A DNA stretch of 64,000 nucleotides from the NCBI GenBank assembly GCA_951406725.2, contig OX597814.1:76136001-76200000 (forward strand), written 5' to 3'. Of this stretch, positions 34,514 to 53,760 are shown one piece after another. The DNA comes from Octopus vulgaris (lineage: Eukaryota). The notes below the pieces were generated by a model. The model did no database searches and was not told where the DNA came from. It was given only the letters and a program-made list of their open reading frames with translations. The number at the start of each line of letters is the position of its first letter. Position 1 is the first letter of the stretch. Position numbers and translations under genes: made by a program.

Positions 34514-34544
34514 CATACATATATATATATATGTATATATGCAT

Positions 34545-35025
34545 ATATGGGTACAGGACGTCACCAACTGTAAATAACATGAAGAATGAAAACAAACAAG
34601 TTAAATATGCTAACAAAAAGAGAAAAATTGGAAAAGTGGACAAGTAACACAAAAAACAATGCTTCATCAATTGTCAGCTGTCTATCTACTCCTCGTTTCA
34701 AGCATTCAACGACAATATGAGTCTTTAAAGACAGTTGTTCCCATAACTTCCAAAATAAATTTTGGGTTTATGGAGGGTAAAAGTTGGGAACAAAAATAGG
34801 ACAGTAGCAACATATAAGGAAACTGAATGAAAACAAACATGGAGTGTCTCGTTAGACAAGAACGAGGGGAATGCTCGAAATGAGGAGTATATAGGCAGGT
34901 GACAACTAAGGAAGGGTCGTTCTTTGTGTTACTTGTTCTTTTATCCATTTCTTTTCTCTTGTTTGCATTTTTAACTGTTTGCATACTTCATGTTGTTTAC
35001 AGTTGGTGACGTCCTATACCCATAT
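34545..35025. mobile_element. Non-coding PLE-like unit with ~160-bp inverted ends
   Basis: 34545-34705 is inverted at 34871-35025; homologous to 36760-37085. Confidence 0.7.
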
Positions 35026-35044
35026 ATACATATATATATATATA

Positions 35045-36410: not shown

Positions 36411-36447
<37 letters not shown>

Positions 36448-36759
36448 TATTTATGTTATTATCTAATTGAATGCCATGCAGCCATTTCCAAGTTTATCTT
36501 AACCTTTTTGATGCAACACTACTCTGTACTGTTTTTCTCCTCAATCCTTCTCTACTTCCCCTTTTCTCCCCTTCACCATTTTCTATCTCTCTCTCCCTCT
36601 CCCCTCTTTCTCTTTCTCTCTCTCTCTCTTATTGCTCACATGTGACCATCGACCATCTTCCTTTTCCCGCAAGACATCATAAGCACTGGACCTCTTCTAC
36701 CTCTCTCTTCAATCTTTTCTCTTTTCAAAGAGAATATTTCTCCCAGCATTCATTATTTT

Positions 36760-37085
36760 TTCCACGTTCTGGTCAAGAAGACCCTCCATGTTTATTTTCG
36801 TTTGGTTTCCTTATATGTCAGCCCTGTCCTGTTTTTTTTCCCAACTTTGATCCTTCATAAATCCAAAATTTTATTTTGGAAGTTATGGGAGCAACTGTCT
36901 TCGAAGACTCATATTGTCATTGAATGCTCGAAATGAAGAGTAGATAGACAGCTGACAGCTGATGAAGGGTCGTTCTTTGTGTTACTTGCTTTGTTTCCCA
37001 TTTTTCTGTCTTGTTGTTTGCATACTTAACTCATTTGCTTTTGTAGTCCATGTTGTTTACAGCTGGTGATGTCCTGTACCCATAT
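36760..37085 (+). mobile_element. Second copy of the 34545 family, with GAAA and CTGATGA motifs
   Basis: Reverse complement of 34545-34870. Confidence 0.75.
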
Positions 37086-37144
37086 ATGCATATACACACA
37101 GACACACACACACAGACACACACACATATATATATATACACACA

Positions 37145-40800: not shown

Positions 40801-41213
40801 GGCGCATGAGTGGCTGTGTGGTAAGTAGCTTGCTAACCAACCACATGGTTGCGGGTTCAGTCCCACTGCGTGGCATCTTGGGCAAGTGTCTTCTGCTATA
40901 GCCCTGGGCCAACCAATGCCTTGTGAGTGGATTTGGTAGACGGAAACTGAAAGAAGCCTGTCGTATATATGTATATATATATGTGTGTGTGTGTGTGTTT
41001 GTGTGTCTGTGTTTGTCCCCCTAGCATTGCTTGACAACCGATGCTGGTGTGTTTACGTCCCCGTTACTTAGTGGTTCGGCAAAAGAGACCGATAGAATAA
41101 GTACTGGGCTTACAAAGAATAAGTCCCGGGGTCGATTTGATCGACTAAAGGTGGTGCTCCAGCATGGCCGCAGTCAAATGACTGAAACAAGTAAAAGAGT
41201 AAAGAGTAAAGAG
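40801..41213 (+). mobile_element. Full-length tRNA-SINE family B (CORE-like) with internal (TA)(TG) tract
   Basis: A box tggctgtgtgg, B box gggttcagtcc, ttgggcaagt core, (AGTAAAG)n tail; 5' 21 nt duplicated at 40779-40800. Confidence 0.9.
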
Positions 41214-41230
41214 TATATATATATGTGTGT

Positions 41231-42522
41231 GTGCTGAAACAACTGCTCAACCACTCAAATATGGAAGTGATATATCTCAACTTTGGAAAGGCCTTTGATA
41301 AAGTCGTTCATGGAATGATATGTCACAAACTGCGTGATCTTGGCATAGTTGGAAAATTGGGAGAATGGCTTCATGACTTTCTGAAGGATAGAAGTCAGGT
41401 GGTAGTAGCCAATAACACGCAAATAGTGAGCGGTGTTCCGCAAGGCACTGTTTTGGAACCACTGCTGTTCATAATGGCCCTCTCAGACATGCCCTCAGCC
41501 ACACAGAGAGCCACAATCACAAGTTATGCAGATAATACAAAAGTTTCACAGGTAATACGGAACCCTGAAGATACTATGCACCTGAAATGTGAGCTGGACA
41601 AAATATACAAGTGGGCTGAAAAGAATAGCATGCAGTTCAATGCTGAAAAGTTTCAAGCTTTATGCTATCAGCATGCAAAACTAAATGCTATACCCAATAA
41701 ATACACTGGACCTGGAGGGATTGCAATCCCAGAGGCACAATCAGTGCGAGACCTAGGTATTTACATGAGTAATGATGCAACCTTTCATGTGCATGTTGCT
41801 AAATTGGCAATGAAATGTAGGCGGCTGACTGGATGGATTCTTAGAGCTTTTAGAACAAGAGACCAGGAAACCATGATGGTCCTCTGGAGGACACTTGTCC
41901 TAAGCCACTTTGACTATTGCTCTCAGCTATGGTCACCAACCAATGTCAAATTAATCTCAGAACTGGAGGCAATCCAACGAAGCTACACAAAGCCTCTGTG
42001 CAGCGCATAAGCTATTGGGAAAGACTCAAGAGATTAAGACTCTATTCCTTAGAGCGTAGACGAGAAAGATATGCCATAATATACATCTGGAAGATCCTGG
42101 AAGGACTTGTCCCAAACTTTGGCATCGAGAGTTACACAAATACTAGAATTGGGCGCCACTGCATAGTGCCAAGGACTCCAAATTTGCCATCAAAATGTTG
42201 GACAAGATACTGTGATAGCCTAGGCTTCAGAGGTCCACAGCTCTTCAATATCCTCCCGAAGGACCTGAAAGACCTGCATGGGGTGGATGCAGATGTCTTT
42301 AAAATAAAGCTTGATCTCTTCCTTTCAAGTGTCCCAGATGAACAGACTTCATGACAGGAGGTGCAGATGAGGGCAGTTGCATCAAACTCTCTCATGCAGC
42401 AAATGTCAATTGCTAAAAAGCAATCGTGAAGTAAAATTATGTAGCAACACCAAATGGTGGTGCCCCAGCATGGCCACAGCTCGTGAGCTGAAACTAGATA
42501 AAATTTAAAAAATAAAATAAAA
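41231..42522 (+). mobile_element. 5'-truncated CR1-group LINE (RT and 3' end)
   Basis: IYLNFGKAFDKV; SGVPQGTVLEPLLF; YADNTK; RDLGI; DYCSQLWSP; YSLERRRER. Confidence 0.92.
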
Positions 42523-42538
42523 TATATGTATATATATG

Positions 42539-42595
<57 letters not shown>

Positions 42596-42637
42596 TTTTC
42601 TCTCCTTTTTTTTTCTCTCCTTGTTTTTTCTGTGTAC

Positions 42638-42674
42638 CTTTCTGTAGAAGAGCGTAGGCTCAAAACATAAAAGA
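42638..42674 (+). ncRNA. Minimal hammerhead-like motif, decayed variant core
   Basis: CTTT/AAAG stem I, CTGTAGAA, GAGC-gtag-GCTC stem II, AAAACATA (from GAAACGTA). Confidence 0.4.
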
Positions 42675-42760
42675 CTTTTTCTATTCCTGAATGTTATACT
42701 AATACATCTGTTTGTTTTGTACACCACCTGTCTTCGTCTTTTGTTTTTTTCGTAAACTTT

Positions 42761-42791
<31 letters not shown>

Positions 42792-42809
42792 GATAGATAG
42801 ATAGATAGA

Positions 42810-42849
<40 letters not shown>

Positions 42850-43054
42850 TATATAGATATAGATATATAGATATATATATATAACAATACTGGGAGGATA
42901 AGAAATGGAACGAAGTGACGAATCGAAACGAACCCGACGCGAAAGCGCTGTCAGACAATAGTGTAATAAATAAAATATATGCATACATACAAACATATAT
43001 GTACGTACCTACATCTACATGTATATATACATGCATATATAAATATATATACGT

Positions 43055-43600
43055 GAGTACAGGACACCACAACTAGATGTAGAACTCAAGGAGAAACGAA
43101 AACGGAAAAGCCATTTTTTTACAACAGAAAAACAGAAACGTGAAACTGGACAAGAAACGAAAACGGGAAAAACATTTTTTTACAACAGAAAAAAAGAGTA
43201 CAGGACATGTTACACAAGGAAAAATCCCCAATCATCAGCTGTTGCTAGTAGACGCAAGCGTGTTTCGAAGGCAAGACAGGACACGACTCGTCAAAACTAG
43301 GCCTTCCTGCGAGAGAATTAAAATAAAATTGCCTCGCAGAGGGGTAAAACAAGCACGAAAAAAAGTAACACAAACAGGACGTAACAATAAAACTGCACAA
43401 TAAAATACATGATAAAAATACATGTACAAGAAAATACAAAACGAGAAATAAAAAATGAGAAATAAAAAGAAAATACAATATGAGAAATCAAAATAAACAA
43501 GAAAACAAACGAGAAAAACAAATGAAAAGGCCTTTTTTCTGGCTTAGACGGAAGATGTTCTAGCAGCGCATGGAAGCATGACTTTACAGTTTGAAAGCAG
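43055..43600 (-). mobile_element. Non-coding PLE-like unit distantly related to the 34545 family
   Basis: Same terminal gtcctgtac and same GAAAC..CAGCTGATGA layout. Confidence 0.55.
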
Positions 43601-44064
43601 CGTGCAAAAGGAAGTGGTTTTGGCTAGCAGTGAGGAGGAGTGAGGTATATATATATATAGATATTCCAACCCATGCTTGCATGGAAAGCTGATGTTAAAT
43701 GATGATGATAATGATGATGATGATGTATGTATATATCTGTATATGTATATCTATACCTATCTATCTATATATATGTATACAATTTTGTATGTAACACAAT
43801 TTTTAATCTTCGGATTTTTAAATATGCTAAGCCACTGGTTTTAATTGATTAACATCAATTTCAACCCTTATTATTTAATTTTATGTATGTATGTATGTAT
43901 GTATGTATGTATTTTTCCTTGGGGCTGGCCATGTTGGAGCAAATATCAGAATTAATCAGCTGAAATTTGCTTTGATGATCCGGTTTCTGACTGAAGATTA
44001 AAGGCTTTGAATGACCTGTCTGTTTTCTGTGTTCGTCTCTTTATATATAAATTTTTATTCCTAA

Positions 44065-51134: not shown

Positions 51135-53760
51135 ACAAAAGAAAAGTATTTCAGGCTGCAAGTTCGTCAGTGGGACTTAAATCACATAAGTTCAATGACT
51201 GGTTCTCAGACAGATCAGCAGAAATTCATGATCTGCTTTTAGAAAAACAAAACTTAGGCAATACAATTCTTTCTCAGAATCCCAACTCAAATGAAGCTTA
51301 CAGAAAGTTGAAAAGGAAAGTGCAGGCAAACGTCTATTTGCTGTTCTCACTGGAGATTTTGGGCCATATATCTCCTTAACATAAGAGTACAAACCTTTAG
51401 CACCATTTCTATCAGCTACTTCTTGTGCCCTTTTGTTCTATCATTCCACCATTCCTGTTTAATTTTCGTAGGAGCATCCTGCACTAAGGAAAATTAAAAA
51501 GGAATGGTAGAATGATAGAGCAAAAGGGGCACAAGAAGCAGCTGATAGAAATGATACCAAGGGTTTGTACTCTTATGTTAAGGAGATATATGGCCCCAAA
51601 TTTTCTTCAATAGCTCCAGTGAGAGAAGCAACTGGATGTTTGCTTCTGACACTGCTTCTATTCATAAGTGCTGGGTAGAACATTTTTCCGCACTTTTGAA
51701 TAGATCATCAACCACTGACATGAGGACGATAGAAAAAATCGAACACTTTCCAGTTATAGAAAAGATGGCATTTGAACCAACTCTAAATGACATTTATTTA
51801 GCTGTGAATAAGCTGAGTAACAATAAGTCTGATGGAATCTGTGCAGAAGTCTTGAAATATGGGGGTGACAAAATGTTTGAACTCTTAAATATGTTAATTT
51901 GTCACTGTTCGAGAACTGAGAAAGTGCCTCAAGACTGGATTTATGCCATTTTAGTCTCCTTGTATAATCAGGGCCAAAGGATCTGTGTGGTAATTTTCGT
52001 GGGATTTCTCTTTTGTCTGTGGTTGGAAAGGTGCCTGCTTGCATTTTGTTAGAACGTTTAAATACCTTTATAGTTCCAAATATAGCATCTGAGTCTCAGT
52101 GTAATTTTCGTTCCTCCAGGAGCACAACTGATTGTATGTTTACTGTCAGACAATTACAAGAAAAGTGCATTGAATAGGATCTTGCTCTATACCATTGCTT
52201 TGTTGATTTGAGCAAAGCATTTGAGATTGTTATCAAAATGTTCTGTGGCTAATTCTAAGGAAAATAGGTTACCCAGAAAAATTTGTAAACACAATCAGGG
52301 CTTTGCATCAAGATATAAAAGCTAGAGTTAACTTTGGTGGCAGGCTCTCTGAATCTTTTGCCGCGGAAAATGGAGTAAAGCAAGGAGACCTTGTTGCACC
52401 CACCCTCTTTGCGATATACTTTGCTGTTGTGTTGTCACATGCTTTTCAAAACTCTGAGGAGGGTATTTACATAAAATATCAAACAACAGGGAACGTTTTT
52501 AATCTGGCCAGACTGAAATTCAATATGAGGTTTTTACTTCACTCATTTGGGAACATTTGTACACTGACAATTGTGATCTTGTCAGTCATTCTGAAACAGG
52601 TGTGCAATCTCTTGTATCTGCATATAACTTGGCTTGTGATGATTTTGGCTTAACCTTCAACTTGAAAAAAGCAGTTGTAATGCATCAACCTGTGTGTAGT
52701 GCTGTTTGTAACCCCCACTAAAATTTTTGTTAAGGGTAAGTTACTTGAGGTTGTTGCTTCATTCATCTACCTTGGCAGCTCTGTTCAAAATGATGGAAAT
52801 CTTGAAACAAAAATACAGCTGTGAATTCAAAGGGCAGCAAAAGCATTTGGTGGCTTGGAGTCACACATTTGGTGCCAGCGACATATAAATAAGGATACTA
52901 AGCTGACACTTTACAAATCATTTGTTTTACCATCCCTGTTGTATTTCTGTGAAACTTGAACTTATTATAAAAGGCATTTTAAATTGTTAGAACAATTCCA
53001 CCAACAATGCCTTCATTGCATCTTAAAAATTAAATGGAGTTCTTTTACTCCAAATACAGATGTCCTTGCATCTGCAGACATCACCACAATTAAAGCTATG
53101 ATTTTGAGGAACCAAATGAGATGGTGTGGCCATATTGTTTGAATGGCAGATGAACGCATGCCGAAACAGTTATTTTATGGAGAGTTTGCAGAGGGGAAAT
53201 GCTATCAGTAAACCTTAAAAAAGGTTTAAGAATGGCATAAGGACTACTATGAAGTCACTTGGAAAGGATCCAGAAGACATAGAAACCCTTGCTTCAGATT
53301 GAGTTGGATGGCGAACAAAATGTGGAGTGGAGTGAAAGCATTTGAAGAGGCCAGGATAATGCATGTAAGACTCAAAAGAGATCTAAGGAAAAATGTAATG
53401 ATTGAGAAGGTGAATGACAATGACCTTTTTGTGACAGACCATGCCTGTCTTTTACTGGGCTCAGATCTCATCTGTGAACCCATGGAAAAAAGAACCTCCA
53501 CCAACTATTCTGCCTATACGTCTTTGCATACCTTTGAATGCAGTGTATGCCAGAAAGTTTGCGAATCCAACGGAGGCCTCAAAAGACATTTTAAGATCCA
53601 CAAAGATCAGAACTTATCTGTAGCTCTTTATGGTCCAAATCAGATGTGCAATCTGTGTGGGTGTCGTTTCAGAACATTGTCTGGTTTAAAAAGCCACATC
53701 AGATGCCATGATGATGCTACGGTGTAGGTACAGGAGGTGGTCAAACTCTACATAAGGAGT
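51135..53760 (+). mobile_element. 5'-truncated RTE-BovB-like LINE with C-terminal C2H2 fingers
   Basis: VPQDW; NFRGISLLS; VRQLQEK; FVDLSKAF; GVKQGDLVAPTLF; WCGHIV; CSVC..HFKIH; CNLC..HIRCH. Confidence 0.92.

Follow-up and report, generated by a model that had tools for sequence, protein, structure and literature searches.

A predicted scrambled hammerhead fold with a split CUGAUGA block in non-coding repeats of Octopus vulgaris

Two repeat copies and their predicted fold

The window, by which we mean the whole 64-kb stretch of Octopus vulgaris DNA analyzed here (from a 2.8-Gb assembly), was AT-rich and microsatellite-rich. Two sites in the window, F1 of family A and F2 of family B, contained the same arrangement of strands built from different bases, and each site lay in a repeat copy with no credible open reading frame (Table 1). 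The F2 site was covered by contigs from four RNA runs, although such contigs cannot show RNA ends or strand and were given no weight in either direction. Elsewhere in the window, a 266-codon open stretch at about 41210-42000 (+) resembled a fragment of a non-LTR retrotransposon reverse transcriptase (RT). A long near-perfect inverted repeat at 51409-51548, with weak matches to several miRNA families, was probably a MITE-like hairpin. A match of locus L158 at 42592-42855 was considered as a Naiad and rejected as flanking repeat.

Table 1. Coordinates of the predicted folds, their strands, and the surrounding repeat copies in the window
Feature	Position	Strand	Basis or remark
F1 (family A), predicted split-core hammerhead fold	36849..36971	+	strand positions, folding, descriptor, alignment
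F1 Pd5'	36849-54	+	
F1 Pe hairpin	36855-88	+	
F1 II5' (Pa 5' strand, GAGCA)	36889-36893	+	
F1 Ix5' (Pb 5' strand, CTGTCT)	36895-36900	+	
F1 III3'	36909-12	+	
F1 predicted cleavage triplet AUA	36911-13	+	
F1 H17 = A	36913	+	predicted cut 36913/36914
F1 I3' (Pc 5' strand, TTGTCA)	36914-36919	+	
F1 II3' (Pa 3' strand, TGCTC)	36925-36929	+	
F1 GAAA	36930-33	+	
F1 III5'	36933-36	+	
F1 Ix3' (Pb 3' strand, AGACAG)	36946-36951	+	
F1 I5' (Pc 3' strand, TGACAG)	36953-36958	+	
F1 CUGAUGA (CTGATGA)	36959-36965	+	
F1 Pd3'	36966-71	+	
Whole F1 repeat copy	36422..37091	+	about one 707-nt unit, non-coding; 3' end fixed, adjoins (TA)/(CA) microsatellite
F2 (family B), predicted split-core hammerhead fold	43226..43344	-	strand positions, folding, alignment
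F2 Pd5'	43344-41	-	
F2 Pe	43339-07	-	
F2 II5'	43306-01	-	
F2 Ix5'	43300-296	-	
F2 III3'	43285-81	-	
F2 predicted cleavage triplet GUC	43282-80	-	
F2 H17 = C	43280	-	predicted cut 43280/43279
F2 I3'	43279-76	-	
F2 II3'	43272-67	-	
F2 GAAA	43266-63	-	
F2 Ix3'	43249-45	-	
F2 I5'	43242-39	-	
F2 CUGAUGA	43238-32	-	
F2 Pd3'	43229-26	-	
Whole F2 repeat copy	42874..43633	-	5'-truncated, unit 870-881 nt, non-coding
Second F1-family copy	34515..34871	-	decayed, core is TTGATGA
Inverted 5' partner of the decayed copy	34870..35044	+	homology begins 7-8 nt 3' of predicted cut

The original prediction had placed three helices (Pa, Pb, and Pc) and a final CTGATGA at F1, and a second family with the same order and other bases at 43306-43232 (-). 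Every one of these strands, and the second family, was found where it had been placed. The extent given for F1 (36889..36965) held the core strands but was too short; the prediction had left out stem III and the Pd/Pe junction, whose two helices begin upstream of that extent, and the motifs spanned about 36849-36971 and 43344-43226. Nor had it placed the sites in mobile elements.

Using hammerhead numbering as in PMC10085705, we assigned Pa to stem II because its 3' strand ended at the C preceding GAAA, and Pc to stem I because its 3' strand directly preceded CUGAUGA. Stem III was formed by the bases after GAA and the strand just before the Pc 5' strand (TCAT:ATGA in F1; CGTGT:ACACG in F2). 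These assignments gave the block order S-G-C, with a linker of 2-5 nt between stems I and II. Pb was an interaction helix between the free ends of stems I and II, designated Ix, which ran into stem III via an asymmetric internal loop. Block C was split, because stem II had its 5' strand at the front of the motif and not after CUGAUGA. The strand after CUGAUGA paired upstream with Pd, and the Pe hairpin followed Pd and ended directly before G10.1; thus, A9 and G10.1 were bridged by two helices. Taken together, sequence and covariation established the predicted strand order as II5' - Ix - (III3' NUH I3') - (II3' GAAA III5') - Ix' - (I5' CUGAUGA) - Pd', and placed Pd and the hairpin Pe between A9 and G10.1. 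We infer that Pd and Pe would form a four-way junction that rejoins A9 to G10.1. Nested folding, which cannot represent pseudoknots, recovered Pd in both window copies, as well as Pe and stem II in F2.

TCGAAGA and TTGACGA, which had been proposed as core words, turned out to be one side of the variable internal loop; they were rejected as a CUGAnGA box because no stem II followed and the segment varied or shortened between families. GTA or GTC after GAAA was not the cleavage triplet. Among loci L061-L150, the internal loop between Ix and stem III was AGUA/GAA-like in families A, D, and E, contained tandem GA in families B and C, and was a 3-nt bulge in the L093/L101/L102 subfamily. We take the AGUA/GAA-like and tandem-GA loops to resemble loop-E and kink-turn motifs.

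The core (C3-A9, G12-A15.1, and U16.1-H17) was intact in both window copies, each of which had CUGAnGA, GAAA, UH, and the A15.1-U16.1 pair. As insertions, both have decayed, and their function may be impaired: the nested minimum-energy fold of F1 tied up part of CUGAUGA in an extended Pd, and F2 had a shortened stem I and, at the junction, TT instead of A. The F2 subfamily (L031-L060; window 43231-43226) had TTGGGG after CUGAUGA, compared to AGGGG in sister subfamilies, which loosened the junction; it was still amplified, with many copies that were 93-97% identical.

Copy number, covariation, and class placement

Genome-wide, the pattern TCGAAA-N12-30-CARCTGATGA had 6,884 matches, compared to 26 for the reversed control pattern; within the window alone, the bare GAAA..CTGATGA pattern was not significant (4 versus 1.5 expected). 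F1 and F2 belonged to dispersed repeat families with 3,070 and 1,177 first-look candidates, respectively, and the 40 scored for each showed 92-100% identity. On contig C1, 97 pattern matches from 90 loci revealed at least five families with different stems. A structural descriptor of the split-core fold identified 86 distinct matches in 698 kb of motif-selected loci and none in each of three shuffles. Ix was at least 4 bp in 70 of the 86 matches, Pd and Pe were both present in 65, and the junction was gap free in 26, several of which were in a weak wrong register. An Rfam scan yielded 148 matches at E<=5, and none were to a hammerhead or other ribozyme family; the miRNA/snoRNA matches were microsatellite driven.

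Covariation was counted in 33 hand-picked intact copies from about six families, which were aligned with MAFFT by sequence only. The copies were chosen on the words CTGATGA, which was invariant, and GAAA, which was present in 33/33. The split model paired 86.3% of cells, compared to 71.5+/-0.9% for shuffled controls and 40-44% for slid controls. Double-sided changes were found in 16/23 pairs and in all five counted helices (II, 3/5; III, 4/5; I, 2/4; Pd, 4/5; Pe, 3/4), and these counts overstate the number of independent events because the families are related. Six of the 33 rows (C-type) were misregistered, and Ix was left out of the count because of a register shift. A second alignment (A2), in which the S block was misregistered between families, was also left out. 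Hence, the covariation that had been predicted across families was found by counting for Pa and Pc and by inspection, outside the counted set, for Pb.

The alignment also bore on the placement of stem II. The upstream strand was 84% paired, whereas a rival stem II, built with the strand that follows CUGAUGA, was 72% paired, dominated by G-U, and broken at its fifth (last) pair in 27/33 copies. Instead, the strand after CUGAUGA covaried with Pd upstream of it (AGGGUC:GACCCU, CGGGG:CCCCG, and UGAGAA:UUCUCA).

Stems I, II, and III therefore flanked a hammerhead core and covaried, and the block order was S-G-C rather than the circular orders CGS, GSC, or SCG of types I, II, and III. In the accessible part of Eckert et al. 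2023 (PMC10085705), type SGC is a non-circular hammerhead that was found in metatranscriptomes and cleaves in vitro. The octopus motifs shared with types SGC and CSG the cyclic order S-G-C, a short I-to-II linker, an interaction helix that links the remaining strands of stems I and II, and the full core consensus. They differed from these types in that block C was interrupted at A9/G10.1, Pd and Pe were added, and Ix was joined to stem III on both strands; an uninterrupted block C would have II5' within 1-2 nt after CUGAnGA, but it was the upstream II5' that covaried. The same source knows of no insertion longer than 1-2 nt between A9 and G10.1, and its six-type scheme assumes an unbroken block C; the core insertions in the consulted part of Perreault 2011 are also of 1-2 nt only. 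The PK hammerhead (Zhan et al. 2024, PMC11300833, as far as accessible) is similar in that it has a non-standard pseudoknotted helix II and keeps hammerhead chemistry, and different in that it has pistol-like connectivity and lacks the S-G-C order and a Pd/Pe-type junction.

Our literature search, which covered few subscription papers, returned no description of a split block C or permuted hammerhead in Naiads and no tested precedent for a hammerhead with helices between A9 and G10.1. Judged from sequence, the predicted fold is real, covarying, and of hammerhead type; it is outside types I to III, is not strictly SGC, and is a new hammerhead variant. This agrees with the original suggestion of a permuted or interleaved hammerhead; the order found was S-G-C, and block C was split.

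Host elements and Naiad tails

The repeat copies had a fixed 3' end next to (TA)n, variable 5' truncation, and frequent partial partners in inverted or tandem arrangement, a layout known from both Penelope-like elements and non-LTR retrozymes. In five loci where both ends were present, the unit lengths were of 707 nt (F1), 870 and 881 nt (F2), 925 nt, and 756 nt; the tandems were mostly partial. Like non-LTR retrozymes (bioRxiv 10.64898/2026.07.22.740005; PMC6765202; accessible parts), the repeats consisted of non-coding tandem units of some hundred nucleotides with one hammerhead each. Non-LTR retrozymes are regarded as non-autonomous derivatives of Penelope-like elements (PLEs), and dimer-dependent cleavage has been proposed for PLE hammerheads in the same sources. 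In contrast to these elements, which are defined by a type I hammerhead, the repeats contained no type I hammerhead; their fold was non-circularly permuted and had a long stem III, and for these two reasons type I descriptors would miss it.

The repeats also resembled the Naiad clade of PLEs (PMC8557442, accessible part) in their (TA)n insertion bias, partial tandems, and inverted 5'-truncated partners. These features are not diagnostic of Naiads because other PLE clades share them. F1 and F2 differed from Naiads in that they lacked the Naiad ORF (N-terminal GIY-YIG, CxC motif, and C-terminal RT) and were unlike family C in sequence.

Family C provided a link to an RT. Its motif was on the same strand as, and 0.7-2.3 kb downstream of, RT remnants in 20/50 loci (12/30 close and 8/20 distant), but A-, B-, D-, and E-type motifs were in this position in 0/50 loci. 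The RT remnant matched Pfam RVT_1 with E=2e-4 and 21.5 bits, which is below the curated cut-off of 29.6 bits. No endonuclease was recognized between the family C RT remnant and the motif, and the two extended copies were 5'-truncated before any N-terminal domain. Loci L153 and L156, which were about 1 Mb apart on contig C14, shared a remnant that we take, by likeness, to be a Tc1/mariner-like transposase, together with nested family C and E copies, which suggests a segmental duplication.

By eye, the Naiad_Ovul and Naiad_Obim consensus sequences had ends nearly identical to family C in the part of supplement S5 of PMC8557442 that was compared. In the accessible text of that paper, Craig et al. 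2021 reported no canonical hammerhead in Naiads and noted that some carry a catalytic core that fits no descriptor; the annotations include 10 "HHR_core" and 8 "HHR_half_core" occurrences, left unexplained there. The split-core fold, with Pd and Pe, could be parsed by eye in Naiad_Bfor (ctenophore), three Acropora Naiads (Amil/Aacu/Anas) and Naiad-2_Movir (cnidarians), Naiad_Plae (acanthocephalan), and Naiad_EuTe (crustacean) (S5). The stem sequences differed in each of these Naiads. Thus, the fold appeared by eye to recur in Naiads of five phyla, within the part of the 54 tails that was compared. No such fold was recognized by eye in the Naiad_Ppla and Naiad_Dcar consensus sequences, which were read whole.

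Other Naiad tails had related arrangements, as judged by eye in the same material. Three nematode Naiads parsed as intact hammerheads of type CSG, for which only two examples, both metagenomic, are known, and two spider Naiads had the S-G-C order with imperfect parts and an apparently intact block. In the Naiad_Smim tail (S5), which followed the S-G-C order, a long hairpin separated I3' from II3', and a 7-nt strand just before its GAAA was complementary to the CUGACGA box, a possible off-switch.

5' junctions, predicted self-cutting, and wider meaning

The 5' junctions of the copies were mapped by homology start at distinct loci among the first 100 rows listed of 482 and of 258, with 15-18 nt upstream of the predicted cut visible. 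Among the matches listed, and with 3 nt of TA microhomology allowed, (TA)n junctions were at or 3' of the predicted cut in 30/32 F1 copies and 36/40 family B copies (66/72 together). The edge tracked each family's own cut offset (15 nt in F1 versus 12-13 nt in family B). None of the 72 junctions fell 6-10 nt upstream of the cut; two fell at -5, both in copies with internal deletions. Only 8/72 of the junctions listed were within -3..+1 of the cut; most were 5-11 nt downstream, with modes at +6 (family B) and +9/+10 (F1), and most of the junctions sat where the II3' strand ends, a place that offers T/A microhomology. Junctions were common 3' of GAAA as well. Of 94 copies chosen without regard to (TA)n, about 19 started <=15 nt before GAAA and about 8 within the 35 nt beyond (by eye). 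The step, located at the cut particular to each family, is consistent with an RT running toward a cut 5' end, followed by microhomology joining to the target. RT stalling plus microhomology could play a part, and so could the absence of TA dinucleotides upstream of the family B cut.

We consider it likely that F1 and F2 are high-copy non-coding tandem repeats whose RNA forms a scrambled split-block hammerhead and cuts itself during Penelope/Naiad-type retrotransposition. The Pd/Pe junction would hold A9 against G10.1, a role normally played by the backbone, and standard hammerhead chemistry would cut 3' of AUA (F1) or GUC (F2). Self-cutting would set the 5' ends of templates and perhaps free unit-length RNAs. 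A PLE RT, plausibly of Naiad type, would prime internally at the (TA)n-linked 3' end and copy back; short copies would arise when the RT runs off the cut 5' end, and intact and partly tandem copies when it reads through an uncut or re-ligated ribozyme. In the consulted part of a study of an Anolis PLE (PMC11167929), internal priming was shown, the RT used mainly uncut RNA as its substrate, and none of the RNA-seq reads had an end at the cut.

The least certain step is the pairing of units. We lean slightly toward a dimer in which two units pair head to tail and the CUGAUGA of each cuts the other, since in some families Ix runs into III as a nearly unbroken rod. The ends of this rod must reach opposite sides of the core; by simple geometry, two antiparallel rods could close into a symmetric dimer at any rod length, and in the octopus families a GA-rich loop could bend the rod. 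Such a bend, with Ix turned back along the core by the asymmetric GA-rich loop, would permit a strictly monomeric fold, which we regard as unlikely though well worth considering. The AGUA/GAA-type loop kept in families A, D, and E and the tandem GA pairs in families B and C would suit it, and the SGC RNAs of Eckert et al. cleaved as single transcripts (PMC10085705, accessible part). However, the Ix-III bulge was 1 nt in Naiad_EuTe (10+5 bp) and 3 nt in Naiad_Plae by eye in the tails compared, which would make the rod too straight to turn back, and Eckert et al. note a large distance between these helix ends in the crystal structure.

The junction data could also be read without cleavage, as an RT stalling in a conserved, hammerhead-derived structure to which the Naiad protein would bind or by which its RT would be positioned. 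The junction peak at the end of the II3' strand instead of exactly at the cut, the frequent junctions further 3', and the intact ribozyme kept in most copies are in keeping with this reading, as is the finding that hammerhead cleavage was dispensable for the Anolis PLE in vitro (PMC11167929, consulted part). We think it improbable, because CUGAUGA, GAAA, and NUH with the A15.1-U16.1 pair recurred across phyla (by eye in the tails compared), junctions were absent from positions 6-10 nt upstream of the cut and those at -5 came from internally deleted copies, and the I3' strand still had junctions even though it has no partner after the RT passes I5'.

An ordinary type-SGC hammerhead, with block C intact, the G-rich strand after CUGAUGA as stem II, and Pa/Pd/Pe as an off-state switch fold, has little probability in our judgment: that class is experimentally validated (PMC10085705, accessible part), the downstream GGG can form four pairs with II3' in families A and B (53 of the descriptor matches also passed a loose intact-block SGC rule), and an apparently intact block occurs with the S-G-C order in the spider Naiads, but the pairing requires two G-U pairs and one additional nucleotide after A9, is the poorer of the two pairings in the alignment, loses its strand to covariation with Pd, and cannot be drawn between that strand and II3' in the Acropora, Plae, and EuTe Naiads (by eye in the tails compared). 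The switchable ribozyme that had been suggested was not supported as the main reading.

If the self-cutting split-core reading is true, the junction pattern would be evidence of a rare kind, drawn from genomes, that the 5' ends of RT templates are defined by PLE ribozyme cleavage. More tentatively, and with somewhat more doubt than confidence, we propose that the fold is a seventh hammerhead topology, in which a four-way junction re-closes a CUGAUGA block that has been opened at A9/G10.1, and in which a domain-swapped dimer counts tandem units. The same fold would be the missing ribozyme of Naiads from comb jellies to octopus, and the SGC, CSG, and split-core Naiad tails would be circular permutations of one ancestral fold, which would explain the origin of non-circular hammerheads. 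If this is true, the assumption of an uninterruptible CUGAnGA block would be broken, current ribozyme descriptors would miss a whole class, and a helical junction at A9/G10.1 would be a new handle for ribozyme structure and engineering. Non-circularly permuted hammerheads would move from environmental RNA to animal genomes, in thousands of copies. It would also answer the apparent lack of a hammerhead in Naiads, which dominate many invertebrate genomes, when other PLEs have one.
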